64,000 nt of DNA from an uncultured Candidatus Saccharibacteria bacterium (GTDB taxonomy: Bacteria > Patescibacteriota > Saccharimonadia > Saccharimonadales > JALRHH01). Location: NCBI GenBank assembly GCA_964639295.1, contig CAZXDT010000001.1, positions 52,784 to 116,783 of the forward strand. The letters run 5' to 3'. A program made the position numbers and the translations under genes. This document shows positions 13,046 to 51,864 of this stretch, piece after piece. Under the pieces are notes generated by a model. It had not been told where the DNA came from. It did not search any database and worked only from the letters and a program-made list of their open reading frames with translations. Position 1 is the first letter of the stretch; every line of letters starts with the position of its first letter.

Positions 13046-13186
13046 ATTCTTTTTCCTTCTTTATTGTTAGAAATATAACTCAGGGCAATTATACCAACTA
13101 TTCATAAGCATAATCAAACTTCAAACTCTAAACTGTGGATAAGTAATCCTATCCACTATGAGGAATGTAGTAAAAGAAGACATCGA

Positions 13187-14647: not shown

Positions 14648-14660
14648 TAAAACAACAAAA

Positions 14661-14691
14661 CCGTCCGAGTTGCCACTCAGGCGGTTTTTTT
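14661..14691. terminator. Bidirectional intrinsic terminator (hairpin with T7 on the plus strand and TTTTGTTGTTTT on the minus strand)
   Basis: CCGTCCGAGT-TGCC-ACTCAGGCGG stem with two bulges, then TTTTTTT. Overlaps the crp stop codon. Confidence 0.55.
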
Positions 14692-15397
14692 AAGACTTAC
14701 GTTTGCCGGACTTCAGCGCAAGGTTACCCATACCGTATTCTTCGTCCAAAAGTTCGTTTAACCTATCGGTGCGAATAATATAATTCTGACGTTTGTACGT
14801 TAGCACGCCTTTACGTTGTAGCTTCTTAAGCTCAATACCTGTTGTTTCACGTGTTAGCCCCATGAAGTTGGCAAGATCTTGCTGGGTAAACGGAATCTCA
14901 ATCCTGACCATGTCTTTTTTAATATCGCTACCGAAGCTAAGACATAGGAAATGGATAGTATTGAGTACCTTGGCAGCAGCTTTAGACTGTTCAAGTGCGT
15001 TGACTCGTAACTGGTATAACGCATATTTCGACATGAAGCTCTCAAATACACCCATTAAACGTGATGTGTCCTTGGAGATATATGCCTTGTAGTCCTCACG
15101 GGGGACACAATAGACCTCACACTTAGTGAAAGCCTCGTGGTAATATGAGATTCGAGTGACTTGGCCAAACACCCAAGCGAGTGGGAAAATGTCTCCCGGA
15201 GCATCAAAGCCGATTGGCTTTTCTTCACCCTGGGAAGTCAGATTATAGGTCTTAACTATGCCTTTCTTCAATATATACACGCAGTCAGGGGTCTCACCCT
15301 GCACCAGTATTAACTCACCCTTATCGAACTTTCGGGTACGGTATTTTTGCAAAAAGAGACGGAATGGATCAATCCTAATAGGCACGTGTGCCACCAC
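14690..15397 (-). CDS. Crp/Fnr family transcriptional regulator
   Basis: cNMP-binding domain plus C-terminal HTH (FMGLTRETTGIELKKL). GTG start with AAGAAGG RBS. Confidence 0.8.
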   Translation of the reverse strand: MVAHVPIRIDPFRLFLQKYRTRKFDKGELILVQGETPDCVYILKKGIVKTYNLTSQGEEKPIGFDAPGDIFPLAWVFGQVTRISYYHEAFTKCEVYCVPREDYKAYISKDTSRLMGVFESFMSKYALYQLRVNALEQSKAAAKVLNTIHFLCLSFGSDIKKDMVRIEIPFTQQDLANFMGLTRETTGIELKKLQRKGVLTYKRQNYIIRTDRLNELLDEEYGMGNLALKSGKRKS

Positions 15398-15420
15398 CTT
15401 CTTGTAAATTACTGTTTAAA

Positions 15421-15957
15421 CTATCCGGCAACTGGAGGCTTGGGCGCAACTACTTTACCCTTGTAGGAATCTTTTATCTGGAAGAGTAAGTAGAAACCAA
15501 GTGCAGAGCCGACAAGACCCATTATAAAGCTTCCGAACCCACGTCCGCTAATAAATACAGCCACTACGGAGTAAACAACATTTAGGACAGAGCCAAGGAA
15601 AAGTAAATCCCAACCACGCCTTTGGAGTTTCTGAAGTGGTGAGAATGCCATTAGAAGAATAACGCCATCAAGTACCAAAGTTGCAATACCGAGGTAGATA
15701 ACTGTCTTATCAAAAGCACTGTAACCAACTGATGAGCCACCATAATACTGTGATAGCTGGTTAGTGAGGTCAATGAGCGGTTGAGTGGCGTCAAGCAGGC
15801 GCCATAATGCCCACGCTGCAGCCAATTGTAGGATACCAAATATCAGTGCAAGCCACGGCCAGACTGCCACTAAGTTCTTTTTAGCATTTGCAGGTAGAGA
15901 CGGTGCGTCTTTGAATACACCTTCTAATGATTTTTCGAGCTTTTTAACGAGTTCCAT
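15421..15957 (-). CDS. Integral membrane protein (4 TM), function unknown
   Basis: Hydrophobic segments only. Confidence 0.45.
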   Translation of the reverse strand: MELVKKLEKSLEGVFKDAPSLPANAKKNLVAVWPWLALIFGILQLAAAWALWRLLDATQPLIDLTNQLSQYYGGSSVGYSAFDKTVIYLGIATLVLDGVILLMAFSPLQKLQRRGWDLLFLGSVLNVVYSVVAVFISGRGFGSFIMGLVGSALGFYLLFQIKDSYKGKVVAPKPPVAG

Positions 15958-16084
15958 GTCACATACTCCTCATTTAATCTAAGTATCAGCTTAGTCCTGC
16001 ACAGAGAGAGTTGCAAGTCCTTTATGCTAGTACTCAGATAAACTACAGGTTAGAAACTTCAATATTAGGTACAATAAGGGTAAT

Positions 16085-19000
16085 GGATTTTGATATGGCC
16101 TATAAAGAGTTAAACGATGCGCAGCGGCAAGCAGTCGATACAATTGACGGGCCATTACTGGTTATTGCCGGGCCTGGAACAGGCAAGACACAACTACTGA
16201 GTGCCCGTGTTGCCAATATACTGACAAAAACTGATGTCAGCCCAAGTAACATCCTGTGTCTGACCTTTACTGAGTCTGGTGCACAAAACATGCGCGACCG
16301 ATTGCGTAGTCTAATTGGCGACAGCGCTTATGATGTAGCAATCAGTACCTACCACAGTTTTGGTAGCGACATTATCAAGAACTACAGTGAATATTTCCAG
16401 CATATTGGAATTGATCGATCAGATGACGTCCGCATGGAGCGGCCCGTTGATGAACTGACACAAATCCAAATTGTAGAACATATTCTTGGCAAATTGCCAT
16501 TTGATAGCCCACTGCTCAGTGCGAGATATTATGTAAAAAGTGTTGTGAGCACCATCAGTGACCTTAAGCAGCATCTCCTCACGCCTGATTCGTTACGGGA
16601 ATTGGCGACAAGCAACCTTGCACAAATAGACCAAGCCCAGCCAGTTATAGATGATATCGTAAACAGTGTTGGCGGCATATCACGAAAAAAGGCAGAGAAG
16701 CTGCAGCAGTATCAGCAATTACTTGATCAACTGTCCGTACTTAGTGGTGATCTTATAGAACAAGCAGCTGCAGACTTACAGAAGGCACACGACAAGGCGG
16801 CGGAACAAAACTCCCCAACACCACTCACTAAGTGGAAGAATGACTGGCTCCACAAAAATGACCAAGATCAGTTTGTGCTGACCGATCCGCTCCGCAGCCA
16901 AAAGATGCTCGAACTGGCTAATATTTACCAAGCATACGAACAGGCACTCAAGGCCAAGGCTTCTTACGACTTTGACGACATGATTCTCCGGGCAATTGAT
17001 GGCCTACAGAAAAACGACGAACTTCGCTTCAATCTCCAGGAACGATACCAATATATTTTGCTCGATGAGTTCCAGGACACCAACCCATCTCAATTTGAGC
17101 TAGTTAAACGCATTGCTGATCACCCCGTACATGAAGGTCGGCCTAACATAATGGCGGTAGGTGATGACGACCAGGCTATTTTTGCATTCCAGGGTGCAAA
17201 CGTTGGCAATATGAAGGATTTTATCGCGAGTTTCCGCGAAGTCGGCATTATAAACCTGACTAAAAACTACCGTTCGCACGCTGACATATTGCATGTCGCA
17301 CATAATATAGCCGGCCAAATAGAGGACCGACTCCATACACAGCTACAAGACATCGATAAAGTACTGGAAGCCAGCGCTACTGATTTGCCAAAGAGCGCAC
17401 TAGTTAGTCGACATGAATTTGCGGCAGAAGCCAGTGAGTACTCATGGGTTGCACAGAAGATTACACAACTCATTGGGGACGGAGCAGACCCTTCAGATAT
17501 TGCAGTACTTGCCCCTAAACACCGACTACTTGAGAATATTGTCCCGTTCCTTAAACAATCAGATGTGGCGGTATCGTATGAAAAGCGCGAAAACATCCTA
17601 GAAACCGAAATTGTTCAGGGACTACGACTTGCTGCTCAGCTATTGGATGCATTGGCATCTGGTCAAACGGCATTAGCTAATCAGTACTTTCCGCTTGTTC
17701 TCAGTCTGCCGTATTGGCAGATTCAACCACAAGATATTTGGAAGATAAATTGGCAATTTGCCAAGAGAGACGAGACGCGGCCCTGGGCAGAAATCGCACT
17801 GGAATCACCGGCACTGAAACATGCCGTAACGTTCTACTTGGCGCTCAGCAGCACAGCAGCTATTGAGCCACTGGAAATCACACTTGATAAATTAGCTGGT
17901 AGTTTGCCGGTAGAACAGGGGAGCTTTAAAGAAACAGCGCCACTTAAGAACTTTTATTTTGAGACCAGCAAGCGCACCTCAGATGCGCTCAAATATTACG
18001 AGGCGATATCACACCTCAGTGTTATTCGTGCCCGTTTGCGTGAGTACCAAGCTGCGACTGATCGTCAGTTGCGTCTGGAAGATTTCTTGGACTTCTTTGT
18101 GATGTACGAGGCGGCAGAGGCTTCGCTTATTAACTCGCATCCTGTTGCCCAGAGTGCTCACGCCGTACAGCTTATGACTGCTTACAAGGCTAAAGGACTA
18201 GAGTTTAACCATGTGTTTATCCTGCAAGCTCACGACGATGTCTGGGGCAGTGCCAGTACTGGTGGCGGCAACAAACTCAGTCTACCGGCTAACCTTAGCT
18301 ATATTCGCTATACAAACTCCACCAATGACGAGCGACTCAGAGTATTCTTTGTAGCCCTTACTCGTGCAAAACATGGTCTCTATATCACTTCACACGCTAC
18401 AAAAGATAGTGGCAAAGCTACCACACCACTGAAATACCTTGCAGAAGCAGAGGGAGTATCTGCGCACCTGCCGCAGCACGCACAGGTAATTCAGACTCAA
18501 GATGTGAAGCCTCAGCAACTTGCTCAAGATATAGAAACACTGTGGCAAGCGGGCCAAGTGAGCCTTCCTGCTGACTTCCGCAGCTTGCTTGCTGACGGGC
18601 TTAAACGGTACCAAATGAGCCCGACTCATCTCAATACATTCTTAGATGTTGAGCGTAACGGTCCGGAGGCATTCCTCGTCCAAACCTTACTCCGCTTCCC
18701 ACAAGCGCCATCTGCTAGTGGCGAATATGGAACCGCTGTCCACAATAGTCTTGAGTGGTACCAAAATCAGCTTAATGCAGATAAACAACCCTCAACTGCA
18801 CAGCTAATCAAACAGTTCAACTACGAGCTAGACAATCGCTACATGACAGATGGCGATCGTGACCATTCACGCTCCAAAGGCCATATTGCACTGCAGCAAT
18901 ATGTCGCCAGTCGTGCAGAGATGTTTAAGAGGACGGCTAAAGCAGAAGTTAACTTCTATAGCGAAGGAGTACTCTTAGGTGATGCACACTTGAGTGGCAA

Positions 19001-33027: not shown

Positions 33028-33579
33028 ATGGTTATGTTTAGAGGCGTTCGGAGGCTCTGTATCGTAATGGTGCTTGGTGTGGCACTAGCTTTAGCGTACC
33101 CCAGCCACTTACTCAGCGCTGCAATTCCCGCACAAGAAGCCGAAACCCTCACAACTTTCCCGGTCCAGGCTGGCCTTCCGGACCCAAATTCTATTTTTGA
33201 TACGGTAAACCAAGTTCGTGCTACCCAAGGGCTCCCAAAACTTAAAAAAGACGCCGTCCTGACCCGTATTGCTCAGGAGCGCGCCGCAGACATGCACAAA
33301 CACTCATATTACGCCCACAAGAACCCCGACGGGCTCTTTTACTACGATCTTATGTATCAACAGCATGTTGGATTTAATTACAGCTGTGAAAACCTAGACC
33401 TACAATTTGTTACATCCTCAGCCAATTACGTTAATGACTGGATGTATAGCAACAAAGGACACCGTGAATGCATGCTGAACACCGTAACCGACCGTGCCGG
33501 CTATGCTATCACAACGCTTGATACCGGGAACGAATCCGTCGCGTATGTAGTCGTCGCAATCCACGCATCCTTAAACTGA
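33028..33579 (+). CDS. Secreted CAP-domain (SCP/PR-1-like) protein
   Basis: Signal peptide. VNQVRATQGLPKL..HRECMLN CAP motifs. Confidence 0.7.
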   Translation: MVMFRGVRRLCIVMVLGVALALAYPSHLLSAAIPAQEAETLTTFPVQAGLPDPNSIFDTVNQVRATQGLPKLKKDAVLTRIAQERAADMHKHSYYAHKNPDGLFYYDLMYQQHVGFNYSCENLDLQFVTSSANYVNDWMYSNKGHRECMLNTVTDRAGYAITTLDTGNESVAYVVVAIHASLN

Positions 33580-33649: not shown

Positions 33650-34975
33650 ATGAGTTTTAGCCAGTTTATATTGGACTCACACGAGCAGTACCGCCAGGAG
33701 GTACGCCTGCGTAATGGTTGGCTCATAAGATTACGGTGGTTGTACCTACTGTTGCTCGGGGGTGTGGCAGTTGCCACTTCATATACCTCTTCTATGGAGA
33801 CACAGCCGTATCGTCGGTTTGTGATAACACTAATTTTGAGTGGGCTGTCGCTTAACTTTGTACTGTGGCTTATCCTGAAGTTTAGGCAACTGTCCACGTT
33901 AGCTTCACACCAAATTGCAGTTATTCAAATCTTATTGGACGCCGGGCTAGCGGCATCAGTCGTCTACTTCCAGGGTGGTATTGATAGTCGCGCGACACTT
34001 TTGTTCGCGTTACCTATTTTGAATGCTGGGGTGCTGTTTGTGCCAATCTTTGCCTATACAGCCGCTGCACTTAATGCCTTGGTGTACACAGGTGCAATGG
34101 TGTTATACCAGCATCATAACCCAGCTAGCTATCCCTTGAAGGACGTTATTTTACCGGCTGTTTTCTATTCGGCTGTGTTTTTACTTCTTGCGATTATTGT
34201 CTCTGGGTACACCGAGCGTAATCGCGCAAAGGAGCGAGAGAGTTCATACGCAGAACTACTGTCGCTGTTGCGCCACCAACTTCACCACCCAACAGGGGTT
34301 ATTGCTGCAATCGTGGAGATGTTAGAGCAAGGGGCGAGCTTCAGTAAACTCACAGCCAAAGAAAAAGAGTATATCAAACAACTCAAGTACGAAAACCATC
34401 GTATACACACCATGATTGCTAACTTACTCAAAACAGCAGATATTGACGAGAAGATATCCCACGGCAGAGAACATTGGACTGATGTACATCTCATGAACGT
34501 TATTACTGACTGTTCCAGCGCGGTCGCCGTAGCATATAAGCGCATAGGCGATTTAGACCTACAAGTACCAAATGAAGACATAACTATGCGTGGCGATCCA
34601 GAGCAGCTACAGCTCGCATTTGAGAACATTGTGGAGAATGCCTTTAAATACAGCGACAAGGGCCACAAAGTTACTATTAGGTTACTTGCTAAGCGCGTAC
34701 CGACTATCGAAATAGATATTGAAGATCACGGTGAAGGTATTAGTGACAAGCAACAAAGAAACCTACTGACTGCGTTTAATAAGCTTGAGACATCCAGTAA
34801 AGACAGCTATGAGGCGATCAATACATATGCCATGGGCCTGGGCCTGTATATCAGTAAAATGATTATTGAGCAGCACGGTGGGCAATTCAGCTTACAATCA
34901 AAGGTAGGTCAGGGAACTAAGGTAATTATTAAGGTCAAACGTGACATGTGGAGGTACTATTATGGACAAAAGTAA
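33650..34975 (+). CDS. Membrane sensor histidine kinase
   Basis: 6 TM N-terminus, H-box (LRHQLHHPTG), HATPase_c with G1/G2 boxes (DHGEGI, GLGLYISK). Confidence 0.8.
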   Translation: MSFSQFILDSHEQYRQEVRLRNGWLIRLRWLYLLLLGGVAVATSYTSSMETQPYRRFVITLILSGLSLNFVLWLILKFRQLSTLASHQIAVIQILLDAGLAASVVYFQGGIDSRATLLFALPILNAGVLFVPIFAYTAAALNALVYTGAMVLYQHHNPASYPLKDVILPAVFYSAVFLLLAIIVSGYTERNRAKERESSYAELLSLLRHQLHHPTGVIAAIVEMLEQGASFSKLTAKEKEYIKQLKYENHRIHTMIANLLKTADIDEKISHGREHWTDVHLMNVITDCSSAVAVAYKRIGDLDLQVPNEDITMRGDPEQLQLAFENIVENAFKYSDKGHKVTIRLLAKRVPTIEIDIEDHGEGISDKQQRNLLTAFNKLETSSKDSYEAINTYAMGLGLYISKMIIEQHGGQFSLQSKVGQGTKVIIKVKRDMWRYYYGQK

Positions 34976-35535: not shown

Positions 35536-35610
35536 TCCGGGGTAGCGCAGTGGTAGCGCAGTTGACTGTTAATCAATTGGTCGCGGGTTCGAATCCCGCC
35601 CCCGGAGCCA
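35536..35610 (+). tRNA. tRNA-Asn (anticodon GUU), CCA encoded
   Basis: Acceptor TCCGGGG/CCCCGGA, anticodon loop CTGTTAA, T-loop GTTCGAATC. Confidence 0.9.
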
Positions 35611-35626
35611 AGGTACTTACGCTTTA

Positions 35627-35654
35627 CAAAATACCACTTATGTGGTATTTTTAG
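35627..35654 (+). terminator. Intrinsic terminator after tRNA-Asn
   Basis: ATACCAC-TTAT-GTGGTAT then TTTT. Confidence 0.5.
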
Positions 35655-35658
35655 TTTC

Positions 35659-35973
35659 ATGAGTTTTTCAAACGAACATATTGGTGGTGGAGCTGATGGT
35701 GGTGTATTTAATATGTATATAGAACTGCCTTCTTGGATGAACCATGAAGATGTTGGTACCGCACTTGTAGAGATTGATGCATCAGTACAGGGCATAAAAG
35801 AGCCTCCAGTAGCAAAGGTGCACTCTGACTATCCTAGACCCGCTCAGATAGATATTGAAGACTATCGCCGTTTTTATGTTGAGTTCGAGGATTACGCAAC
35901 AGAGGAAGACATCAAAGCAGCAGTTCAGATTGTGTCTGGAGCAATCAAAAAGCTTCGATATGCTGACGCATAG
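35659..35973 (+). CDS. Hypothetical small acidic protein
   Basis: Follows tRNA-Asn. TAG stop fused to repeat copy 5. Confidence 0.45.
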   Translation: MSFSNEHIGGGADGGVFNMYIELPSWMNHEDVGTALVEIDASVQGIKEPPVAKVHSDYPRPAQIDIEDYRRFYVEFEDYATEEDIKAAVQIVSGAIKKLRYADA

Positions 35974-36042
35974 TTCGGAAGTCGTTTATTAGTGGGAGCC
36001 ATAAGCATTTTGACCTCTGTTGAAGCAGAGGTTTTTGTTTTG
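35971..36042 (+). repeat. Dispersed repeat, copy 5 (full head plus hairpin CCTCTG-TTGAAG-CAGAGG plus T-run)
   Basis: Head identical to copies 2 and 6. Confidence 0.75.
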
Positions 36043-36118
36043 ACTCTCAAAGGGGGAACTTGGTATTTATCGATACATAGCTTATATTACAAAGCATAAA
36101 CGTCAACAAGGCTCTTAA

Positions 36119-37633
36119 ATGCTAAAAATAAAGTTACTAAAGTCAGATCAAAAGGGCTTTTCGCACCACTTCATACTACCGCTAATCGTAATTACAGTCA
36201 TCGCAGGTATTGGTACGTATATAATTACGAAATCGAAGGCGGCAACAAGTGGGCCAGTTATTGCACAAAGAAGTCAAATTAGAGCTTTTTCAAGTGGTAA
36301 ATGCCTGGAGAATGATAATGGCACGAAAGCACTCGGAAATCTTATTGTCATCCGACCGTGCGATGCTAAGAAACCTGTATCCCAACTGTGGACTATTATG
36401 GGTGACAGGTCACTTCGTAATGCCAACGGCTATTGCCTTGATACCCAAGCAGGCATAATGACCCCAGGTACAAAGATTGTCATGCGCAATTGTACGGGCA
36501 ATGTAGACCAACAATGGGTAATTTTTACTGCTGATCAAACTATTCGTAACCCCCTAACTGGTCTGTGTCTCGCAAACGAAGCTGGCTCGTCACAAGTTAT
36601 CATAGATAGATGTGCTGAGAGTAAAACCCAACAACACTGGAACGCTGCTATTTACACAGGACAAAAACTACCTTCAGTGCCTACAGTGCCTAAAAAAATC
36701 GCTCCTACTGCTGGAGCAACGAGCAGATTCACGGTCGGAACATTCAACGTGCTGGGTTATCACTACACAATACCTGGTTCAAAATCATCCTTACAGAACT
36801 ATCCTGGTTTTCGTGATGGTATTACACGAATCGATTGGGCTGTGAAAATGTTCGAAGAGAACAAGCTAGACGTTGTGGGTTTACAAGAATTTGAGCCAGA
36901 ACAATATGGCCGTGTTAAAGCAATATACGCAGGGGATACAACTGGAAACTGGTTAATCTACCCAACCCCTATGCGGCAAGATACCAACAATGTTTCAACA
37001 GGTGCTATTATGTGGCGGAAAAATAAATTCACTATGATCGCTTCAGGGCACCGGTTAATTAGCAGAGCTAACTTTACGGACAAAGATGGGAATGAAGTTA
37101 CAAAAGATGCAGAAGCTCCTTGGGTAAAGCTCAAAGAAAACAGTACTGGCAAAGTATTTTATGTAACAAATATCCATGATGCCGTAACCACGCCTACTGT
37201 AAATAATGCTCAAACCCGAGTTGCAAACGAGACTGAAAATCTAGCCGATATAAAGAAAAAGTTAGCTGACGCACCCGTCATTGCGACCGGTGACTTTAAC
37301 TCTGGTTTTAGCTGGGACGCTACTCGTGATGCAGGGATACCGAAAACAAGCATAACCTACTGTATCCTAACCCAAGGTGGCTTTATGACCAATGCATATG
37401 ATATTTCACGTTATATCAAGGCGGGCGTTCAAGGAGAATATTTCAGTACGACTAATCGTACGACTATCCCGGCCTGTCCATCTTCTAGTAACCCAGATCG
37501 ATCGGACGTGGACCATATATATGTTAGCAACAAGGTAAATGTTCTGAACTGGATTGTTGTACCAGGAGAGACAGATCCCGCACTTAGGGTTTCAGATCAT
37601 AAACTCCATTACTCTAGCGTCAGCATTCAATAG
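36119..37633 (+). CDS. Secreted ricin-B (beta-trefoil) lectin fused to an endonuclease/exonuclease/phosphatase (EEP) domain
   Basis: Signal/TM; three QxW repeats (SQLW, DQQW, QQHW); EEP motifs GTFNVLG, VVGLQEF and C-terminal SDH. Confidence 0.7.
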   Translation: MLKIKLLKSDQKGFSHHFILPLIVITVIAGIGTYIITKSKAATSGPVIAQRSQIRAFSSGKCLENDNGTKALGNLIVIRPCDAKKPVSQLWTIMGDRSLRNANGYCLDTQAGIMTPGTKIVMRNCTGNVDQQWVIFTADQTIRNPLTGLCLANEAGSSQVIIDRCAESKTQQHWNAAIYTGQKLPSVPTVPKKIAPTAGATSRFTVGTFNVLGYHYTIPGSKSSLQNYPGFRDGITRIDWAVKMFEENKLDVVGLQEFEPEQYGRVKAIYAGDTTGNWLIYPTPMRQDTNNVSTGAIMWRKNKFTMIASGHRLISRANFTDKDGNEVTKDAEAPWVKLKENSTGKVFYVTNIHDAVTTPTVNNAQTRVANETENLADIKKKLADAPVIATGDFNSGFSWDATRDAGIPKTSITYCILTQGGFMTNAYDISRYIKAGVQGEYFSTTNRTTIPACPSSSNPDRSDVDHIYVSNKVNVLNWIVVPGETDPALRVSDHKLHYSSVSIQ

Positions 37634-37667
37634 TATAGATATTGCTGCTCCGTATATTTTGGCATCA

Positions 37668-37736
37668 AGTTCGGAAGTCGTTTATTAGTGGGAGCCATAA
37701 GCATTTTGACCTCTGTTTCGGCAGAGGTTTTTTGTC
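37668..37736 (+). repeat. Dispersed repeat, copy 6 (full head plus hairpin CCTCTG-TTTCGG-CAGAGG plus T-run)
   Basis: Head identical to copies 2 and 5; lies between convergent genes. Confidence 0.75.
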
Positions 37737-37739
37737 TTG

Positions 37740-38576
37740 CTAAAATTCTATATTGTCAATTAGGTGTCGCATTATCTCGTCTGGGTTAGTGACTATAGCA
37801 GTAGAAGTTGCGTTGCATAACCCTCGAACACAGATTTCAAGCTCATCGCCAGGTCTAGCGCTTGGTATTACCTCAGATACAGATCTTGTCTGGACGCCTC
37901 GCACATATTGGTCAATTGGTGTCCAGCCCAGGTTACTATAAGACCGTGTTTGGTCAGGAATGTAGTCCACTAATTGTGGCGCTAGACCGACGATGGCACC
38001 AAACATCACTAATGGTTCATACAATGACTCACCAGATTCATTATCTTCAAGATAGCTAAAGCCCACGATATGTCGAGCCAATGATACTCGACCTATTGGC
38101 TTGTTAGTCCAATCGATGATAGCTCCGAGATCAAGTTTCATTGCCAACAAGCTTGCTATTGGGGCCGCTAGAACATCCGTGCTCTCAGGAATCATAGTTC
38201 TGCTCGGCGTTGCACTTTCAGATACGAATGGATTAAGGGGGTCAATTTTTCCTTCGAGACAGAACATTGCTTTGTCCATCACAAAAAATGATGCATGTTG
38301 TGATGGAATACGCATAGTTGGGGTGCTTGCTACATTTGCATGTGTTGTATTTCCCTCTGAGGTGCGTCTACCTGTAAGTATATGAATCTTGTCTTCGAAT
38401 GAAGTTACAACAGTAGCAGAAAGCACTGGCTGCCATAGATTATCCAAAGCAAATGGATCAGCAAATATTTCGTTAGCATCTGCTGGTGAATCAAAGCCTG
38501 GCAAGTAGGGTGAGAGCTCTCGTATTTCAGCCTCGGTGTACTGTCGGCGAGCATGAATTAAAGGGTTAATTTCCAT
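37740..38576 (-). CDS. Hypothetical protein
   Basis: 278-aa ORF with coding-like composition; no motif recognised. Confidence 0.4.
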   Translation of the reverse strand: MEINPLIHARRQYTEAEIRELSPYLPGFDSPADANEIFADPFALDNLWQPVLSATVVTSFEDKIHILTGRRTSEGNTTHANVASTPTMRIPSQHASFFVMDKAMFCLEGKIDPLNPFVSESATPSRTMIPESTDVLAAPIASLLAMKLDLGAIIDWTNKPIGRVSLARHIVGFSYLEDNESGESLYEPLVMFGAIVGLAPQLVDYIPDQTRSYSNLGWTPIDQYVRGVQTRSVSEVIPSARPGDELEICVRGLCNATSTAIVTNPDEIMRHLIDNIEF

Positions 38577-38626
38577 GATTCAAAACTTTTGCATATAATA
38601 ACATATTTATTGTATGAAGTAAATTA

Positions 38627-38665
38627 CCTTCACCTCTGTTTCGGCATGGGTCTTTTATTTTGTTT
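38627..38665 (+). repeat. Degenerate copy 7 of the repeat tail (CACCTCTGTTTCGGCATGGGTCTTTTATTTTG)
   Basis: Left hairpin arm and loop are conserved; right arm is mutated. Confidence 0.4.
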
Positions 38666-38679
38666 GATATGATGTCCCT

Positions 38680-39243
38680 ATGAGAAATGCAATTATCCTT
38701 CATGGACAGCCAAGCAAAGAAGAATACTACGACCCTACAATGCCGAGCATGAGCAATGCACACTGGATACCTTGGCTACAAGGACAGTTACTTAAAAATG
38801 ATATTGAAGCCGTAACACCTGAAGTACCGTACGCCTTTGAGCCCAAGTGGGACCTATGGTTAAAAGAAGTTGAACGGTTTGATATAACTCCAGAAACTCT
38901 AATTGTTGGGCATAGTAGGGGTGGTGATTTCTGGCTAAGATACCTGAGCGAACGCCCAGAACTTAAAGTCGGTAAAGTTGTTCTTGTTGCACCATCACTT
39001 GGATTCTTAACACTCAACGACAATTATTTTGGTCAGTTTGAGATTGATCCTAATCTCGCAGAGCGTACGAATGGCATCACCTTATTTCATTCCGATAATG
39101 ATGGGCAAAACATGATTGAAACTGCAGAAAAACTAATCAGAACTATTAGCGGGCTCAAGCACCAGCAATTCCATTTAGGTCACTTTACATCTGGAAGCAT
39201 GGGTACTACAGAATTTCCGGAGCTTCTTGATGAAGTACTGTAG
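38680..39243 (+). CDS. YdeN/RBBP9-like serine hydrolase (alpha/beta fold)
   Basis: ILHGQPSKEE..IVGHSRGG nucleophile motif, ~190 aa. Confidence 0.6.
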   Translation: MRNAIILHGQPSKEEYYDPTMPSMSNAHWIPWLQGQLLKNDIEAVTPEVPYAFEPKWDLWLKEVERFDITPETLIVGHSRGGDFWLRYLSERPELKVGKVVLVAPSLGFLTLNDNYFGQFEIDPNLAERTNGITLFHSDNDGQNMIETAEKLIRTISGLKHQQFHLGHFTSGSMGTTEFPELLDEVL

Positions 39244-39310
39244 TTCGAACCTCGTCCACTAGGGGGAGCCATAAGCATTTTGACCTCTGTTTCGGCAAGG
39301 GTTTTGTTCT
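39241..39310 (+). repeat. Dispersed repeat, copy 8 (variant head TAGTTCGAACCTCGTCCACTAGGGGGAGCCATAAGCA plus weakened hairpin)
   Basis: Starts on the TAG stop of the upstream gene. Right hairpin arm is CAAGGG instead of CAGAGG. Confidence 0.65.
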
Positions 39311-39480
39311 AAGTGCTCATGGTTATCACTGGTAATTATGATTTAATATAGGCATTATTGTGAGACACCTCCAATAGTATTTTGACAGAGTGGTAATCGG
39401 TTGCGCTCACAAATCTATTACGTAATGTGGGCTTGTGTGCGTAACCGAATGTTTTGGTTATTAGCTATCGGGAGATTGTT

Positions 39481-39723
39481 ATGTCCAGAGAAGTCATCTT
39501 AGCGATTGCGATCGTTGCGATTGCTATTGGAGTGATCATCTTTTTCGTTGGCGTCGTTTGTGCCGTTGGCCCTGACGATGGCGTCAATGTGCAACTTGGC
39601 ACATTCCTTGGCGTAGTTGGATTTGCCCTTGTCATGTTCGGCATCGTCGGCATAATCAAAGCACCCAACAACGAGCCTGGAGATGGTCAAGAAAGTGTTG
39701 CATTTTGCAATACTCGATGCTGA
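39481..39723 (+). CDS. Small membrane protein
   Basis: GGGAG RBS; two TM helices. Confidence 0.35.
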   Translation: MSREVILAIAIVAIAIGVIIFFVGVVCAVGPDDGVNVQLGTFLGVVGFALVMFGIVGIIKAPNNEPGDGQESVAFCNTRC

Positions 39724-39866
39724 CTGCATGATGCGTTTTATATGAGGGGGATTCGGACATCGATGATCTGTATCAGAGCAGCCGCTCACCCCTCCGCACC
39801 TACCAATCTTTACACTCTGTCACTCAACCCAAGTTTTCATAAACTGAAGATTTAGTTTGAGCCTTT

Positions 39867-39889
39867 GTTCGGAAGTCGTTTATTAAGGG
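39867..39889 (+). repeat. Head-only fragment (copy 9) of the dispersed repeat (GTTCGGAAGTCGTTTATTAAGGG)
   Basis: 23-nt match to the head; no hairpin follows. Confidence 0.45.
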
Positions 39890-39939
39890 CATGATAGACA
39901 CCTTGCAAAAATATGGCACCCTTCATCTATGAACAGCGA

Positions 39940-40410
39940 TTATTTTCGACGTTTTGATTCGTTGATGTTTACTGCTTCAGTAACGAGAGCCCTCAGTGCA
40001 ACCCCATTAACAACATCACCTTCATGAAATTCGATTGCACGATCGGTACTACTCTTGAGACGAGCGTTGAAGAGGTTGTTCTCATCCTTCATGAGGACGC
40101 CTTTAAAGAAGACTAGTTTTATATCGTTTTTGAATGTTTCTGCTATACAAAGTATTCCGTCATGTGACCAAACGGGGAGTCCCTCTGGCCGAGTGGGCAT
40201 CTTCCATTTTACCTCTTCGATCACTTCAGGATCGGCCTGTTTAATCTGCGCCCGTAAGCTAGACAGTATCTCAGCCTTCCAGCCACCGTAAAGCTTGATT
40301 ATGTCATCTATTTGCTGTGAGGCGGGTTTATCTTCCATACTATTATCATACAGCAAGATGGATGAAGCATCTTTGCAGAGTATTTTGTATTGTGGGTTAT
40401 CGTAAGCCAT
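39940..40410 (-). CDS. DUF1801 (YdhG-like) domain protein
   Basis: Overall similarity to YdhG-family proteins (..EVKWKMP..GILCIAETFKN..). Confidence 0.5.
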   Translation of the reverse strand: MAYDNPQYKILCKDASSILLYDNSMEDKPASQQIDDIIKLYGGWKAEILSSLRAQIKQADPEVIEEVKWKMPTRPEGLPVWSHDGILCIAETFKNDIKLVFFKGVLMKDENNLFNARLKSSTDRAIEFHEGDVVNGVALRALVTEAVNINESKRRK

Positions 40411-40474
40411 AGAACCTAAGGTGTTGGCAGGGTGAGATGATACTTAGTTTGAGCCGCTTTGCTATACTAGAGAC

Positions 40475-40684
40475 ATGCAAAAGATAGCCACTCGAATATT
40501 CATTTACGCCTCAATTGCTTTTGGGATCGTAGGGATTCTAATCGTCTTAACCGCCTCTGGCCCAGACGAGCCAGATTCCCGACTTAGTGAAATACTCATA
40601 AGACTTCTATTTGGAACCGTATTCATCATACTGCCTTCTTTTGCGTTAAGCATTGCTGGCAAATATCTGAACGGCAAGTCTTAG
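40475..40684 (+). CDS. Small membrane protein
   Basis: Two TM helices. Confidence 0.3.
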   Translation: MQKIATRIFIYASIAFGIVGILIVLTASGPDEPDSRLSEILIRLLFGTVFIILPSFALSIAGKYLNGKS

Positions 40685-40725
40685 TATTATTTTGAGATCC
40701 TCAGGGAATTAGAAAGGTGGTGCTT

Positions 40726-41115
40726 ATGATAAAAAACCAAGAAGGATTTACCATAATTGAGATAACTATTGCCCTTGTTGTTGTGGCTGTACTTGGTGTG
40801 GGTGCTGTAATGCTACTCAAACATTCAAATCCCACGCCTACAAATAGCAGTACTCTGACTATTGAGGGGAAGGTTATATCAATAGTCGACCAAGGTGGTG
40901 ACACATGTTTAACATACGTCTTAAATACAAACGATTACATAGCAGTCCGATGCCCAGACATGTCAGGTTATAAGGGATTTACGGGGACTTATGATAAGGA
41001 TATTAAGGTTGGTGACACAGTAACAGCAAATGGTACATTGAAAACCCCATCAACTAGCAATCATAAAACCTACCACCTTGATAAACCTGGTACATACCTA
41101 CAATTAAAAAGATAG
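40726..41115 (+). CDS. Type IV pilin-like protein (prepilin N-terminal cleavage/methylation domain)
   Basis: Leader MIKNQEG, then FTIIE (Phe+1, Glu+5) followed by a hydrophobic helix. GGTGG RBS. Confidence 0.75.
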   Translation: MIKNQEGFTIIEITIALVVVAVLGVGAVMLLKHSNPTPTNSSTLTIEGKVISIVDQGGDTCLTYVLNTNDYIAVRCPDMSGYKGFTGTYDKDIKVGDTVTANGTLKTPSTSNHKTYHLDKPGTYLQLKR

Positions 41116-43528: not shown

Positions 43529-43795
43529 ATGAATAAAGTACAAATCGCTACTGGTGTAGTACATGAAGTGCCAGATGACTTATATAAAGCCCTAATATCT
43601 GATGAATCCGCACTAGAAAGATGGGAAGACCTCACTCCACTTGCGCGCAACGAATGGATCTGTTGGACGATAAATGTCAAAACAGACGAGACGAGAAAGA
43701 AACATGTTGAGCGCGTGATAGAAGAACTACTTGAAGGCGTGCGTCGCCCATGCTGTTGGGTTGGGTGTATGCATCGCACTAAGAACGGTAAGTAG
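43529..43795 (+). CDS. YdeI/OmpD-associated family-like small protein
   Basis: Overall resemblance to YdeI-like proteins (..LARNEWICW..KKHVERV..). Confidence 0.45.
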   Translation: MNKVQIATGVVHEVPDDLYKALISDESALERWEDLTPLARNEWICWTINVKTDETRKKHVERVIEELLEGVRRPCCWVGCMHRTKNGK

Positions 43796-47778: not shown

Positions 47779-49437
47779 TTACTCGCCAATTGGGATAGTT
47801 TCGCCGCCCATTTTTTGGGCGAAGTAACTATCATGAGAGATGTAAATAACCGCACCATGGTAATCTGCCATGGCGTTTTCTAATTCCTCAATGCTTGGTA
47901 GGTCAAGATGGTTAGTTGGCTCATCAAGAATCAAGATCTGTGGGTCATTAACAAGCATTCTGATTAACTGGAAGCGAGCTTTTTGGCCACCACTCAAACG
48001 ACTAATTGGCATGTCACCGTCAGTCATTGGGTTAAATAGGTAATCACCAAGTAGTTGTTTGACCTTCTGGTCATTGATTGGCACATCGTGATCGAAGTAG
48101 ACGCGTTCAATGGCTTCGGCCAGCTTGAGGGGTAAGTACTTTTCGTCAATTTCTTGTTCGTACAAACCGAGTCGTAAGTCTTTCTCGACTGCCAATGTAC
48201 CAGCAAACTTTTGGCAGGCAAGTGGTTTATCAGCAACCTGAGACATGATGGCGTTTACTAGCGTCGTCTTACCAGCACCGTTACGGCCGTGCAAACGAAT
48301 ACGCTGACCTTCATGCAGGCTAAAGTCGATATTTTCAAACAAAGGCTTATCATCGTAACCCAAGCTGAGCTTACTCGCCTGGACAATGAGTCGTTCTGAC
48401 TTAACTGCCTTGGCATTTGTATTAAGTGAAATATTCTTTGCCTTGTACTTATCGTAGGCGACTGTCATCTTAGTACCGAGCTCGTCCGCAGACTCACGGT
48501 CAATCCAGAACGAAGGTTTGCTTAGCTTTTCGAGCTGGGCCAGTTCAGCAGAAGCTTTCATTTCTGATGACTTGAAACGCTGGATAGTACCAGGGTCACG
48601 AGATTTTTCCTTAAGTCTACGGAAACGGATAACATCATCTTTAAGATTACGGATACGCTTTTGAGTTAAGTCATATTCATTAACCTGGGATGTCATCTGG
48701 TTCTTATTAATACGCAGATATTGAGCATAATTACCCTTAAAGGTGTAGGCTTGCCCATCGCGGATCTCAATAATCTTATCCACGACACTCAGTACATCAC
48801 GGTCGTGTGTAATGACCATAACGGCCTCCTGAGCTGATTTGAGCCACTTAGTGAAGGCTTGCTTGGCAACATAGTCCATGTGGTTGGTTGGTTCATCAAT
48901 CAATGCTAGGTGACCACGTGATCGCTGTACCTTAATAAGCTCCGTCATACGCTTTTGGCCACCAGAGAGCTCGCCAACCTTACCGTAGAGCTTACTCGGG
49001 TCAATTTGGTAGGCGGTAAAGGCTTGTTCTAGTTCATCTTCAATTTGGTAATAACCCAATTGCGTAAAGCGTTCCAACGCATCGCTATACTCTTGAATTT
49101 TACGAGTATTGTCCCCCATGTGCTCGGGGTAGGTGGTAATAATGTCGTGTAACTTCACGAATTCAGGCAAATCACCCTGGATGTACTCTAGGACTGTCTT
49201 ATTATCGAATCCGTGGTGCTCCTGGCGGCTACTAATAATGGTCATGCCACTCTTGAGCTTGATCTCGCCCTGGTAGTCTTTATCATCACCGGTCACAAGG
49301 TGGAGTAGGGTAGATTTGCCTGTGCCGTTGCGACCAACAAGCCCAACCTTCTCATTTGGTTGCACGTCAAACTGCAGATTGGTATATAACACTTTTCCGC
49401 CAAATGACTTTTCTGATACAGCTACAGACAATAACAT
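47779..49437 (-). CDS. ABC-F family ATPase (two tandem ABC domains, no TMD)
   Basis: Two Walker A motifs (GRNGTGKST, GRNGAGKTT), two LSGGQ signatures, charged inter-domain linker. Confidence 0.85.
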   Translation of the reverse strand: MLLSVAVSEKSFGGKVLYTNLQFDVQPNEKVGLVGRNGTGKSTLLHLVTGDDKDYQGEIKLKSGMTIISSRQEHHGFDNKTVLEYIQGDLPEFVKLHDIITTYPEHMGDNTRKIQEYSDALERFTQLGYYQIEDELEQAFTAYQIDPSKLYGKVGELSGGQKRMTELIKVQRSRGHLALIDEPTNHMDYVAKQAFTKWLKSAQEAVMVITHDRDVLSVVDKIIEIRDGQAYTFKGNYAQYLRINKNQMTSQVNEYDLTQKRIRNLKDDVIRFRRLKEKSRDPGTIQRFKSSEMKASAELAQLEKLSKPSFWIDRESADELGTKMTVAYDKYKAKNISLNTNAKAVKSERLIVQASKLSLGYDDKPLFENIDFSLHEGQRIRLHGRNGAGKTTLVNAIMSQVADKPLACQKFAGTLAVEKDLRLGLYEQEIDEKYLPLKLAEAIERVYFDHDVPINDQKVKQLLGDYLFNPMTDGDMPISRLSGGQKARFQLIRMLVNDPQILILDEPTNHLDLPSIEELENAMADYHGAVIYISHDSYFAQKMGGETIPIGE

Positions 49438-49592: not shown

Positions 49593-50963
49593 ATGAGATT
49601 AAAAAAACAAGTCACGTCTAGAAATAAAAAACAGTCTAAGAAACAAAACAAAGTTATCAGGTGGATATCAAGCCACACAGTTGTTACTGCAATTCTATCG
49701 ATTGCTATCTTTGGTGGTATAGGTGCATACATCATCACTGCCTCCCAGGCAGCTACCGTTAGTAACGTGCGCGTCAGCACGAGCTTGGGCTGCAGGCTCG
49801 TTGGTCGTGTGTGGGATGGTGACTCTTGTAACTACGGTGCAGTGGGGTCAAGTGCACCATGTATCTCGAAAGCAGAGACCTATAGGGAAATTACTGGTAC
49901 TGACAAAAACACTCGTGGCTATTGTACGAATTCAGTTGCACTAAGTATTGGCCAGAGTTCTTGTGTGGATACCCTGCACAGAATGTATGTCTACCAGATC
50001 GGTTGTGCGAGGCGCATTGACCAAAATAACACTGCCAATGCAGTACAGTGTCAACCTGACTATCCAAACTATGTTGCCAATGTCTCTACCGACTACTGCA
50101 AAAAACCAACAACAACTACAACAACGACAGGTATCGATACCACAAACAAAGATGCAGTTAATAACGCCTACAAGAGCCTTTGGGTTTCTGGCCAAAGCGT
50201 AACCTCAGGTTGGACCGGCTCAGTGAATGGATGTAAGGCAGGAACAATAACTGCTGCTGCACAGACGGCACACGTAAATGCAGTCAACTTCGTACGACGC
50301 ATGGTTGGACTAGGTTCAATTAGCGCATCGACAAACACAGCCGGTGTGCAATCTGCAGCGCTCATGATGGAAGCCAACGGATCCTTGTCACACTCACCAC
50401 CGACGACTTGGATTTGCTATACAGATGCCGGTAAGTCTGCAGCCGGTAAATCAGACATTGCACTTGCATTTCCAACAATTAACCCCGTAAAATCAGTCGA
50501 CCTATACATGAAAGACCCGGGTGACAGTAATCAAGCCGCCGGTCACCGCCGTTGGATTCTTAACCCACCAACATCTTCTATGGCATTCGGAATGACTACA
50601 GCCGCTTCAGCAATTCAAGTTATTGGACTTTCGCAAGATAACACTGCAAATCCTGCGTGGGTACAGTGGCCAAGTGATGGTTATTTTCCTGACGCTATTG
50701 AACCAAATGGTCGTTGGTCATTATCATCAGGTAACAACACTGCATCATTCACAAATGCTACTGTGACTGTCACACACAACGGAACTAATGTTCCCGTAAC
50801 AAAGTTTGCCCCCCACACAGGTTACGCAAAGCCAACACTCGTATGGCAAATGCCTGCAGGGTTTGCAAAGACAGGAACCTATACTGTCAGTGTTAAGAAT
50901 GTGGTGATCGGTAGCACGGCTTATAGCAGCTCCTATAATGTCACTTTCTTTACTCCTTACTAG
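49593..50963 (+). CDS. Secreted protein with Thr-rich linker and CAP-like domain
   Basis: N-terminal TM/signal, TTTTTTG linker, AGHRRWILNP CAP-like motif. Confidence 0.5.
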   Translation: MRLKKQVTSRNKKQSKKQNKVIRWISSHTVVTAILSIAIFGGIGAYIITASQAATVSNVRVSTSLGCRLVGRVWDGDSCNYGAVGSSAPCISKAETYREITGTDKNTRGYCTNSVALSIGQSSCVDTLHRMYVYQIGCARRIDQNNTANAVQCQPDYPNYVANVSTDYCKKPTTTTTTTGIDTTNKDAVNNAYKSLWVSGQSVTSGWTGSVNGCKAGTITAAAQTAHVNAVNFVRRMVGLGSISASTNTAGVQSAALMMEANGSLSHSPPTTWICYTDAGKSAAGKSDIALAFPTINPVKSVDLYMKDPGDSNQAAGHRRWILNPPTSSMAFGMTTAASAIQVIGLSQDNTANPAWVQWPSDGYFPDAIEPNGRWSLSSGNNTASFTNATVTVTHNGTNVPVTKFAPHTGYAKPTLVWQMPAGFAKTGTYTVSVKNVVIGSTAYSSSYNVTFFTPY

Positions 50964-51008: not shown

Positions 51009-51159
51009 ATGTAATTTAAATCACATCCAAGTAGTAGCAGCGCTTACAGCGTTTATATCCCCATAAGCCTATAGTAAAAGTATCGGTTGAGACCAGGGAT
51101 AATCCTACCAACCACAAGGACAAATATATCGCTCTATGGAAAAGAGCGGGGGGTTTGTG

Positions 51160-51864
51160 ATGCCAAAATTCAATAGATTACGTACTACAGCAACCATGAC
51201 ACTGTCAGTGGTAATACTTAGCTTTGGCGGCATAAACACAGTGCTCGGAGGGACTGCGTCAGCGGTGAGTGATATAGTGCTCGTAACCCTCACTAACAAT
51301 CAGCGTGCAGCGAATGGCTTACAACCATTGTCATGGAACGGAAGCCTCAGCCAATCTGCTGCACTCAAGGCTCAAGATATGTGTATTAAAGACTACTGGG
51401 CGCATGATAGCCCCGATGGACTAACACCATGGGCATTCATGGACAGGGCAGGTTACCCCTATGCAACTGCCGGAGAAAATTTAGCTAAGAATTACGCAAC
51501 TGACGAAGGGGTCATAACCGGCTGGATGAACAGTCCTGGACACCGTGAGAACATACTCAAGACAAGTTTTACCGACATTGGAATCGCCAGTGTGCAATGT
51601 GTCATGCAGGGAGTACAAACTACGTTGGTTGTTGCTCACTATGGCAGTACAGGCCGACAGTCAGTAGCCAAAACACCTCAAGCAGCAGCTCCAAAAATAC
51701 ATACTACAGTACCCGTACAACAACCCGTCACCCCAGTAGCACAATCTTCACCGGCGGTTAAGACAGATAGTATTGTGCAAACTTCTAAAGTACACAAACA
51801 AACTATGGTGGAAATAATCACAAGCTTACAGAAACTACTAAATACATCGACAATCATTAAGTAG
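51160..51864 (+). CDS. Secreted CAP-domain protein (YkwD-like)
   Basis: LTNNQRAANGL.., HDSPDG, GENLAKNY, GHRENIL CAP motifs. Confidence 0.75.
   Translation: MPKFNRLRTTATMTLSVVILSFGGINTVLGGTASAVSDIVLVTLTNNQRAANGLQPLSWNGSLSQSAALKAQDMCIKDYWAHDSPDGLTPWAFMDRAGYPYATAGENLAKNYATDEGVITGWMNSPGHRENILKTSFTDIGIASVQCVMQGVQTTLVVAHYGSTGRQSVAKTPQAAAPKIHTTVPVQQPVTPVAQSSPAVKTDSIVQTSKVHKQTMVEIITSLQKLLNTSTIIK

Follow-up and report, generated by a model that had tools for sequence, protein, structure and literature searches.

A modular gene-cassette array anchored at a tRNA-Asn gene in a genome of Candidatus Saccharibacteria

Two kinds of described systems are relevant to the locus reported here. The first are integrons, the cassettes of which are transcribed from a common promoter, together with sedentary chromosomal integrons and integrase-less attC clusters (CALINs). 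The second are the tRNA-seeded additive genomic islands of Prochlorococcus, which are built by tycheposons (bioRxiv 10.1101/2020.12.28.424599). Our locus lies in a 64,000-nt stretch of an uncultured Candidatus Saccharibacteria genome (contig CAZXDT010000001.1, positions 52,784 to 116,783), called the window below, where an initial annotation had recognised at 35536-41115 a tRNA-Asn-anchored islet of small genes punctuated by a repeat. What we find there, and describe with high confidence, is a modular, hypervariable cassette array anchored at the tRNA gene. Like the tycheposon islands, it stands in a streamlined genome and has its beginning just 3' of a tRNA gene, pieces of the tRNA sequence recur along it, cargo gathers by the tRNA, and the content varies among close relatives. 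With integrons, sedentary chromosomal integrons and CALINs it shares co-oriented, mostly one-gene cassettes with a site at or next to the stop codon, the capacity for long hypervariable arrays, and a cargo of small accessory enzymes and proteins of unknown function.

Saccharibacteria, like other Patescibacteria, depend on bacteria on which they live and have very small genomes, and little is understood of the ways in which accessory genes enter and leave these genomes. A repeat-bounded array seeded at tRNA genes, which reaches about 21 kb in one relative, would give a concrete and searchable mechanism for such turnover. The literature on Saccharibacteria and the Candidate Phyla Radiation (CPR) was searched for cassettes, integrons, hypervariable tRNA regions and genomic islands; within this coverage, which is incomplete, no description of such an array in Saccharibacteria or CPR was found.

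Cassettes and their junctions downstream of tRNA-Asn

The array is anchored at tRNA-Asn (GTT; 35536-35610, + strand), which was called by ARAGORN and by Rfam (tRNA, 75.7 bits), has its CCA encoded and ends in ...CCCCGGAGCCA. Past this gene, a repeat of about 75 nt is present in three full copies (35971-36044, 37667-37739 and 39241-39314), one truncated copy and a remnant consisting of the terminator only. Three further full copies are located past tRNA-Gln (8836-8910; ARAGORN and Rfam), at 8971-9044, 9400-9472 and 9737-9811. Within the window, copies are restricted to the downstream sides of these two tRNA genes, and all of them lie on the tRNA strand. That the repeat is real, as the initial annotation had stated, is borne out by its 18-mer core, for which 5 matches with at most three mismatches were found against 0.06 expected. 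Its role as mere punctuation has to be revised, as it is rather the structural key to the islet: each copy joins the right end (RE) of one cassette, which resembles a tRNA end, to the left end (LE) of the next, which bears a terminator. These two parts bound the cassettes and assort independently.

The RE has a length of 31 nt (TAGTTCGGAAGTCGTTTATTAGTGGGAGCCA, with variants such as TAGTTCGAACCTCGTCCACTAGGGGGAGCCA), opens with a T-loop-like GTTCGA and closes with GGAGCCA, which equals the 3'-terminal 7 nt of tRNA-Asn. In the window, the 18-nt end of tRNA-Asn occurs in full only in the gene itself, the RE sharing just GGAGCCA and the GTTCGA motif. The LE is the stretch past the CCA, consisting of a short spacer, a G+C-rich hairpin and a T-run, followed by cassette-specific upstream sequence that probably carries the promoter. 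Loci of relatives (designated L003, L008 and so on) were compared, orthologues of the histidine kinase gene at 33650-34975 serving to retrieve the corresponding locus, and at least five LE types occur among the loci compared. In L003 and L011, one of them, LE2 (AGCATAAGCACTTTG...), stands behind displaced copies of the genuine 3' end of tRNA-Asn, and a related LE2-type terminator takes this place in L020; LE2 is for this reason probably the native trailer and terminator of tRNA-Asn. The repeat as a whole seems to derive from the tRNA-Asn 3' end together with this trailer and terminator. In some junctions of L022, a nested small repeat of about 45 nt (..CCTCCGTCACTTCGTTTTGAAGGGCAG..) was seen inserted between the CCA of the RE and an LE1- or LE2-type terminator at 8701-8745, 9343-9390, 9919-9965 and 13324-13370.

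Four cassettes can be delimited next to tRNA-Asn, three of which carry a single gene. Cassette 1 (35611-36001, + strand) begins with a hairpin and T-run at 35630-35652, which was read from the sequence, is missing from the list of our terminator scan and would end the tRNA transcript; it carries a 104-aa ORF (35659-35973) and is closed by the RE at 35971-36001, whose first TAG is the stop codon of this ORF. The LE of cassette 2 (36002-36118, + strand) is of the LE1 type and comprises TAAGCA, a terminator hairpin with T-run (36012-36033) and a promoter-like site (36060-36088), though the number of promoter-like sites in our scan, this one among them, was not above chance. It is followed by the cargo, a 504-aa lectin-phosphoesterase gene (36119-37633, + strand), and by the closing RE (37667-37697, + strand), which reads AAGTTCGGAAGTCGTTTATTAGTGGGAGCCA. 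Cassette 3 (37698-39271), which holds two genes in mixed orientation, opens with an LE1 terminator at 37708-37729; this hairpin and that at 36012-36033 were both scored as terminator-like in the terminator scan. There follow the gene of a 278-aa orphan (37740-38576, − strand), the LE-like terminator remnant (38629-38662) and the gene of a Ser_hydrolase of the YdeN family (38680-39243; Pfam/NCBIfam), the stop codon of which is the TAG of the RE at 39241-39271. Cassette 4 (39272-39895, + strand) is decaying: its LE1 hairpin is degenerate (39280-39313), its 89-aa ORF (39454-39723) encodes a hydrophobic protein, and its RE is truncated (39865-39889).

Evidence that the junction between RE and LE is a unit boundary comes from both of its sides. 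Among 37 non-redundant RE copies, 21 start with TAG, which in nine of these is the stop codon of the upstream ORF, and in 23 of 35 cases an ORF stop codon lies at most 12 nt from the start of the RE. On the other side, one and the same LE follows the CCA of the tRNA in one genome and the CCA of an RE in another, as in L011 (229-386) and L008 (9071-9230), where the two are 85% identical; likewise, the LE that follows tRNA-Asn in L003, L008 and L017 follows the RE at 4939 in L011. RE variants and LE types combine independently across the loci. Longer copies of the tRNA end are found in relatives: L003 displays a 1.16-kb insert with 14 nt of the tRNA-Asn 3' end repeated exactly at its flank, L011 has near-exact copies of the end of its own tRNA, and in L020 an exact 18-nt copy closes a structured element of about 165 nt that adjoins the tRNA. 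The assemblies point to the same units, with two Logan contigs (L001, L002) containing the lectin-EEP gene alone and beginning or ending inside the flanking repeats, and a third (L024, 1599 nt) containing exactly the two genes of cassette 3. Short-read contigs of the window strain (L001, L002 and L024-L026; SRR8931239, SRR8931241 and SRR8931242) break at or near the repeats and hold one cassette or part of one each. Since the repeats break short-read assemblies at every cassette, such arrays fragment and are probably under-represented in metagenome-assembled genomes (MAGs).

Co-oriented and mostly one-gene cassettes, numbering dozens in one relative, with a conserved stop-codon site and with small accessory enzymes as cargo (NUDIX, glyoxalase, HAD, DUF1801) are what a classical integron or a CALIN would display. 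The junctions argue strongly against such an assignment. In 24 aligned junctions there are neither RYYYAAC...GTTRRRY cores nor an attC-type imperfect palindrome; the sole palindrome is the terminator hairpin with its T-run, and RNAalifold predicted pairing in this hairpin alone, leaving the RE unstructured. A terminator at every junction would, moreover, stop transcripts started at a shared promoter, the array is anchored at the end of a tRNA and not at attI, and no intI was found adjoining the array or elsewhere in the ORFs scanned. We consider membership in this class very improbable.

The RE might instead be a functional RNA element of the 3' untranslated region, for instance one bound by a small RNA or protein, or a mimic of a tRNA end serving 3' processing or stability. 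It always lies on the coding strand between stop codon and terminator, it is strongly conserved, being near-identical among genomes whose core proteins are 60-80% identical and between both loci of the window, and G-U pairs in several terminator stems would fit a function of the + strand RNA. Nevertheless, this explanation is improbable: no secondary structure or covariation was predicted for the RE, Rfam found nothing but the two tRNAs (gathering thresholds for the whole window, permissive E-values around both tRNAs), the RE is absent from every other gene of the window, and neither the tRNA anchoring nor the hypervariability would be explained. Two other ideas were rejected. A coding function of the RE (a SSEVVY*/SSNLVH* frame, seen by eye) does not agree with the upstream ORFs, which run in other frames, nor with the lack of conservation of the upstream sequence; a function as DNA-uptake sequence does not agree with the lack of RE copies outside the arrays. 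A scan of a genome collection with a 20-nt core of the repeat matched one Candidatus Saccharibacteria MAG and one Paracoccus genome, the latter probably by chance.

The second, smaller array past tRNA-Gln (8971-9811, + strand) contains ORFs for a 99-aa acidic protein (9104-9403) and an 81-aa membrane protein (9485-9730), both bounded by the three RE-LE copies given above. Its RE at 9401-9431 is 100% identical to that at 35971-36001, while the 3' ends of the two tRNAs themselves share AGCCA only. A weak RE-like sequence, CTCGGAAGTCGATTACTAGGGCAAAC, is located at 10327-10346, 14 nt past the NUDIX gene (9825-10313) of this array, which may once have been one cassette longer. Directly upstream of the true tRNA-Gln, at 8614-8830, there is a second copy that looks non-functional: its first 32 nt are identical to the 5' part of tRNA-Gln, the 3' acceptor strand is missing, and insertions of about 37 nt in the anticodon loop and about 85 nt in the T-loop are present (fold z-score -2.4); neither ARAGORN nor Rfam called it. 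A degenerate 19-nt copy of the tRNA-Gln 3' end (GAATCCCTCCGCCCAGCCG) lies at 8932-8950, 22 nt past the real gene.

Conserved upstream block and variable downstream zone

Comparison with relatives revealed a sharp change at the tRNA. The upstream block of GT2, GH42-like, SmpB, kinase, response regulator and tRNA-Asn genes is syntenic, with kinase identities of 79% (L008/L013), 67% (L017-L019), 58% (L015/L016) and 44% (L020); tRNA-Asn stands directly 3' of the orthologous response regulator in the first three groups, and the two are separated by a CAP gene and an FMN_red gene in L020. Past tRNA-Asn, the gene content was different in every genome compared: HAD, NUDIX, Peptidase_S51, cupin and many unknowns in L013; MOSC, YdjC and AHSA1 in L017; a nitroreductase-YcaO cluster closed by a single RE in L015; HTH, DUF2975, glyoxalases, HAD, DUF4287 and a lectin-EEP gene in L003. 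None of the islet proteins of the window is encoded in L008/L010, though SmpB, kinase and regulator are 77-79% identical there. The array reaches its greatest extent in the L013/L022 lineage, where about 21 kb with some 35 genes, nearly all on the + strand, separate tRNA-Asn from the OmdA gene, and 24 RE copies, all co-oriented and usually with one ORF each, occupy the last 17 kb or so; L011 has about 12 RE copies past tRNA-Asn. Hence, the annotation as a tRNA-anchored islet is strengthened, in that the 3' flank of tRNA-Asn is a hypervariable insertion zone across the whole clade and neither core nor syntenic in the relatives. Cassettes are not confined to single small genes, as L015 shows: its sole cassette, located between tRNA-Asn and the one RE (16114-16148), comprises 4 kb (12115-16042) with two nitroreductase-family genes and YcaO, which together recall pathways for azoline-type modified peptides.

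The distal limit of the zone can be drawn with the help of L020, a distant, array-less relative, in which homologues of OmdA (60%) and of a 69-aa membrane protein (52%, about 550 nt downstream of the tRNA) adjoin tRNA-Asn. In the window, the corresponding landmark is an 88-aa OmdA/DUF1905-like gene (43529-43795, + strand; 87% identical to that of the L013/L022 lineage), which marks the distal side, and the gene of the 69-aa protein lies at 40475-40684 (+ strand). Because these two adjoin the tRNA in L020, the insertion zone of the window extends from 35611 to about 40470 and constitutes the tRNA-proximal part of the cassette array. Its last gene before the conserved neighbours encodes a DUF1801 protein (39940-40410, − strand; Pfam), lacks a flanking RE and has no orthologue in the relatives examined. 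On the strength of its homologue in L020, the 69-aa gene is probably an old neighbour, as is the adjoining gene of a type IV pilin-like protein (40717-41115, + strand); both would be residents and not cassettes. The latter protein displays a G|FTxxE cleavage/methylation motif followed by a hydrophobic helix (EGFTIIEITIALVVV), matched by PF07963 (25.2 bits, cut-off 21.2) and TIGR02532 (19.5 bits, cut-off 16.3).

The initial annotation had counted these distal genes among the islet and had every gene followed by a repeat copy. The 69-aa and pilin genes, however, are probably not cargo, and a full repeat copy follows only the 104-aa, lectin-EEP and Ser_hydrolase genes, the DUF1801, 69-aa and pilin genes having none. 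The rest of the gene list was confirmed, with all ORFs of 35536-41115 found in their annotated places, ARAGORN, Rfam, Pfam and NCBIfam supporting the tRNA and the lectin, EEP, YdeN, DUF1801 and pilin assignments, and the 104-aa protein being acidic indeed (pI 4.5). For the 278-aa orphan, Pfam, NCBIfam, PADLOC and PDB sequences gave no match, and its single-sequence AlphaFold model (pLDDT 33) was unusable.

A deviating composition of the islet was found only in part. Its GC content (0.42-0.455, against about 0.45 for the window) is unremarkable, whereas GC at third codon positions amounts to 0.31-0.37 in the repeat-bounded cassette genes compared with 0.42 ± 0.04 in 27 other genes of the window, a mild deviation. 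Together with the position next to a tRNA and the mixed gene orientation, this slightly low value would suit the decayed remnant of a single large prophage or integrative element, but repeated junctions split the islet into units of about 0.4-1.6 kb, two repeat patterns scanned against viral contigs gave no matches, PADLOC detected no defence systems among 10 islet proteins, and phage or conjugation genes are missing. Such an origin is therefore highly unlikely.

The surroundings of the zone display some rearrangement. Three genes of CAP-domain proteins (cysteine-rich secretory protein family) flank it at 33028-33579, 49593-50963 and 51136-51864, and L003 has two CAP-domain genes at the corresponding place. 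An ABC-F gene, 70% identical between the two loci, is located in the window at 47779-49437 on the minus strand, 12 kb past tRNA-Asn, and in L003 at 2703-4361 on the + strand, adjoining SmpB, so that the zone from SmpB to the CAP genes has been rearranged around the tRNA-Asn array by inversion or transposition.

The structured element mentioned above for L020 has a length of about 165 nt and is conserved among relatives (L011 236-405 and 3838-4012; L008 9078-9260; L003 6740-6910; L020 13233-13405), where it follows tRNA-Asn or an RE; it was not found in the window. It starts with a terminator hairpin, continues with a T-arm-like segment (GGTCGCGGGTTCG) split by a hairpin region of about 65 nt, and in most copies terminates with the 3' end of the resident tRNA-Asn, repeated exactly or almost so. 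Compensatory changes were seen in 17 of 48 predicted pairs among five sequences. The element could be a full-length recombination site or a structured RNA, and the RE looks like an internally deleted form of it.

The 504-aa lectin-EEP protein

As initially annotated, the cargo of cassette 2 combines three QxW repeats and an EEP domain in one chain of 504 aa, which was verified by Pfam and by the sequence. A hydrophobic N-terminal segment (aa ~15-38, 36161-36232) is followed by a Ricin B beta-trefoil (Ricin_B_lectin, PF00652; aa 53-174, 36275-36640; E 1e-23, 84.2 bits, cut-off 29) and by the EEP domain (aa ~203-504, 36725-37630), in which Exo_endo_phos (PF03372) matches aa 242-494 with E 5e-12 and 46.4 bits (cut-off 24.5). 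The lectin domain contains the QxW motifs SQLW, QQW and QHW, aligns to the B chains of ricin, abrin and other ribosome-inactivating proteins, and is a putative sugar-binding ricin B-type beta-trefoil. The N-terminus (MLKIKLLKSDQKGFSHHFILPLIVITVIAGIGTYIITKSKAAT) is conserved in P0002, the homologue encoded in L003, and is predicted to be a signal or anchor segment, making the protein a predicted exported or membrane-anchored one. Part of it, KGFSHHFILPLIV (36152-36190, aa 12-24; RGFGHHIILPILV in P0002), recalls the G|F signal of prepilins with its hydrophobic helix, though without Glu at +5, and may be a lineage-specific export or anchoring signal.

The catalytic residues of the EEP domain are conserved, the set N210, E257, H353, D392, N394, D493 and H494 being invariant in 8 homologues, and the motifs NxxG, GxQE, NxH, GDFN, IDHI and SDH all align to 3G6S and 4C1R. 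A search of PDB sequences with a profile of the protein and its homologues gave BVU_0621 (3G6S, E 1e-19), apo BT3783 (3MPR, E 1e-18) and the BT3783 mannosyl-6-phosphatase (4C1R, E 5e-18) as best matches, with CCR4 and nocturnin as the next families at E ~1e-6. Foldseek ranked 3g6s and 3mpr in positions 1-5 for the AlphaFold model, which is usable for the EEP domain only (pLDDT ~80); the value of about 30 for the lectin is due to an alignment of just 8 sequences. The EEP domain is closer to BT3783/BVU_0621 than to other EEP families. CdtB, DNase I and sphingomyelinase appeared neither at E <= 1 in the PDB profile search nor in the Foldseek top 50, and the likeness to CdtA/C-CdtB and bacterial sphingomyelinases suggested by the initial annotation found no support.

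The idea behind that likeness, a single-chain analogue of cytolethal distending toxin (CDT) or a toxin of the sphingomyelinase or nuclease type, draws on the combination of a ricin-type lectin with an EEP domain, a fold to which CdtB, DNase I and sphingomyelinase C belong, on the predicted export and on a weak Pfam match to CDtoxinA. This match (E 1.4e-5, aa 52-94), however, lies inside the far stronger Ricin_B_lectin span, profile and fold searches place the EEP domain with BT3783/BVU_0621 at E ~1e-18, and EEP relatives are fused to cell-wall hydrolase domains, so that we hold a toxin of this kind to be improbable.

BT3783 dephosphorylates phosphorylated mannan and N-glycan (PMC4978465). For the present protein, an exported phosphoesterase that would take phosphate or phosphodiester groups off glycans, plausibly the envelope polymers of the host bacterium, is an attractive possibility, to which we would assign slightly less than even odds. 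Of the carbohydrate-targeted nuclease or phosphoesterase proposed earlier, the phosphoesterase is thus the best reading and the nuclease the less likely one; a putative role directed at a host or competitor is plausible. Against a glycan substrate it has to be noted that TDP2, CCR4 and nocturnin, enzymes of nucleic acids, are among the relatives of this EEP clade, with weaker scores.

An exhaustive search with the EEP domain yielded 679 representatives, of which only P0002 shares the lectin-EEP architecture. Many of the best matches are proteins of 770-1600 aa, among them P0010, P0011, P0017, P0022 and P0030, which display 30-40% identity to the EEP part (window 36716-37630; E 1e-24 to 1e-47). 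In the four of these for which a Pfam scan was made, EEP is accompanied by Peptidase_M23, and the fifth, P0010, is named a Saccharibacteria transglycosylase by its source. There is a recurrent link between this phosphoesterase clade and cell-wall hydrolases. Together with the lectin-EEP cargo, the M23-fused relatives suggest a clade of predicted exported phosphoesterases with sugar-binding or wall-degrading domains, and these are candidate enzymes for action on host envelopes.

Origin of the array and comparison with known systems

The best overall explanation of these observations, to which we give a probability of roughly 0.55, is a gene-cassette array that grows by addition, with the 3' end of tRNA-Asn as its seed, in a genome of the Saccharibacteria type. 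Each cassette would consist of an LE with its terminator, one or two genes, and the 31-nt RE at or a few bases from the stop codon; cassettes would be gained, lost and exchanged by recombination at the junction, at or adjoining the CCA. The most likely agent would be a site-specific recombinase encoded elsewhere, for which the tRNA end or any RE could serve as docking site, and the terminators would insulate the cassettes, each being expressed on its own. We propose this part only tentatively; site-specific recombination by an enzyme acting in trans, at the CCA or immediately beside it, is suggested by the precise anchoring at tRNA ends, by an RE that terminates much like a tRNA and by the uniform orientation of the copies.

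Several observations weigh against the proposed array and its agent. Searches for an integrase, transposase or resolvase were negative: XerD, lambda Int and gamma-delta resolvase as tblastn queries gave nothing in the window and loci L003 and L007-L012 (E < 0.1 for XerD and lambda Int), and Pfam recombinases were detected neither in 40 ORFs of the window (around both tRNAs and along the islet, about 30 ORFs in syntenic core blocks being left out), nor in ten ORFs of L008/L011, nor among the Pfam annotations of the relatives' loci. The identity of the RE to real tRNA ends is short, 7 nt for tRNA-Asn and 5 nt for tRNA-Gln. Neither an excised circle nor an empty site nor a presence/absence polymorphism among strains was observed, and the cassette order is identical in three samples of the L008/L013/L022 lineage. 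Finally, the lectin-EEP gene has no RE in L003, and its identity between the window and L003 (62%) is close to the core divergence (SmpB 66%, ABC-F 70%); as both carry it in the interval from tRNA-Asn to the OmdA/DUF1905 gene, it has to be seen as an old resident of the zone and not as a recent import.

The array might also have arisen without any dedicated machinery. The RE-LE junction, derived from the tRNA-Asn end and a terminator, would then act as portable homology for RecA-type swaps after transformation, with growth by unequal crossing-over. This scenario agrees with the negative search for recombinases, the free recombination of RE and LE types, the strong conservation of the junction over 60-75 nt, and the equality of LE2 with the native trailer and terminator of tRNA-Asn. 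However, stretches of 30-75 nt are barely long enough for RecA to recombine them efficiently, and three features would be left unexplained: the start of the array exactly at the tRNA CCA, the tRNA-end-like terminus of the RE with its abutment on stop codons, and the presence of the same RE at two tRNA genes with differing 3' ends. Further support for it comes from cultivated Saccharibacteria, which are naturally competent (PMC10633639). On balance, homologous recombination alone is the main alternative and a serious one, though we regard it as rather unlikely. Owing to the same competence, insertion at the junction may be open to experiment.

Returning to site-specific insertion into a tRNA-seeded array, a bolder version of this idea is an undescribed integron-like gene-capture system of Saccharibacteria, with the tRNA CCA end as primary dock and the 31-nt RE as cassette site. 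Here, a trans-encoded recombinase, or a single-strand transposase inserting 3' of a short target, would move the terminator-insulated cassettes, and the element of about 165 nt could be the full-length form of the site. We consider such a system doubtful.

Among known proteins, BT3783 of Bacteroides thetaiotaomicron (4C1R, 3MPR) and BVU_0621 (3G6S) share the EEP fold with the lectin-EEP protein, and their catalytic motifs align; they are single-domain proteins with about 17-20% identity, in contrast to the ricin lectin, hydrophobic N-terminus and extra insertions found here. CDT likewise joins a ricin-like lectin to an EEP domain, but in three separate subunits (the lectins CdtA and CdtC and the nuclease CdtB) and not in one chain; the present EEP domain is not CdtB-like by sequence or fold rank, and the CDtoxinA match reflects the shared lectin fold only. 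The large Saccharibacteria proteins with EEP and M23 belong to the same EEP clade and also have a targeting or cell-wall domain joined to it, though they comprise 770-1600 aa and carry peptidoglycan hydrolase domains in place of the lectin.

For the array as a whole, membership among integrons or tycheposons fails: no integrase was found, attC cores are lacking, and tRNA 3' segments repeated directly at the distal end of an insert reach att length in relatives (L003, L011 and L020) but not in the window. Compared with integrons, no IntI was found, although a CALIN would not need one, and attI as well as the attC core and palindrome are missing; a terminator stands at each junction, each cassette probably has its own promoter, and the dock is the 3' end of a tRNA at two loci. 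Tycheposons are multi-gene elements with a tyrosine recombinase of their own, and their partial tRNAs are true att copies. Here, in contrast, no recombinase was found, the units carry one or two genes on 0.4-1.6 kb, all that the repeated site has in common with the tRNA is its last 5-7 nt and the T-loop-like GTTCGA, and the array is far more regular, as illustrated by the 24 units within 17 kb of L022. The closest relatives in function are the tRNA-seeded islands built by tycheposons, and those closest in form are the cassette arrays of integrons.

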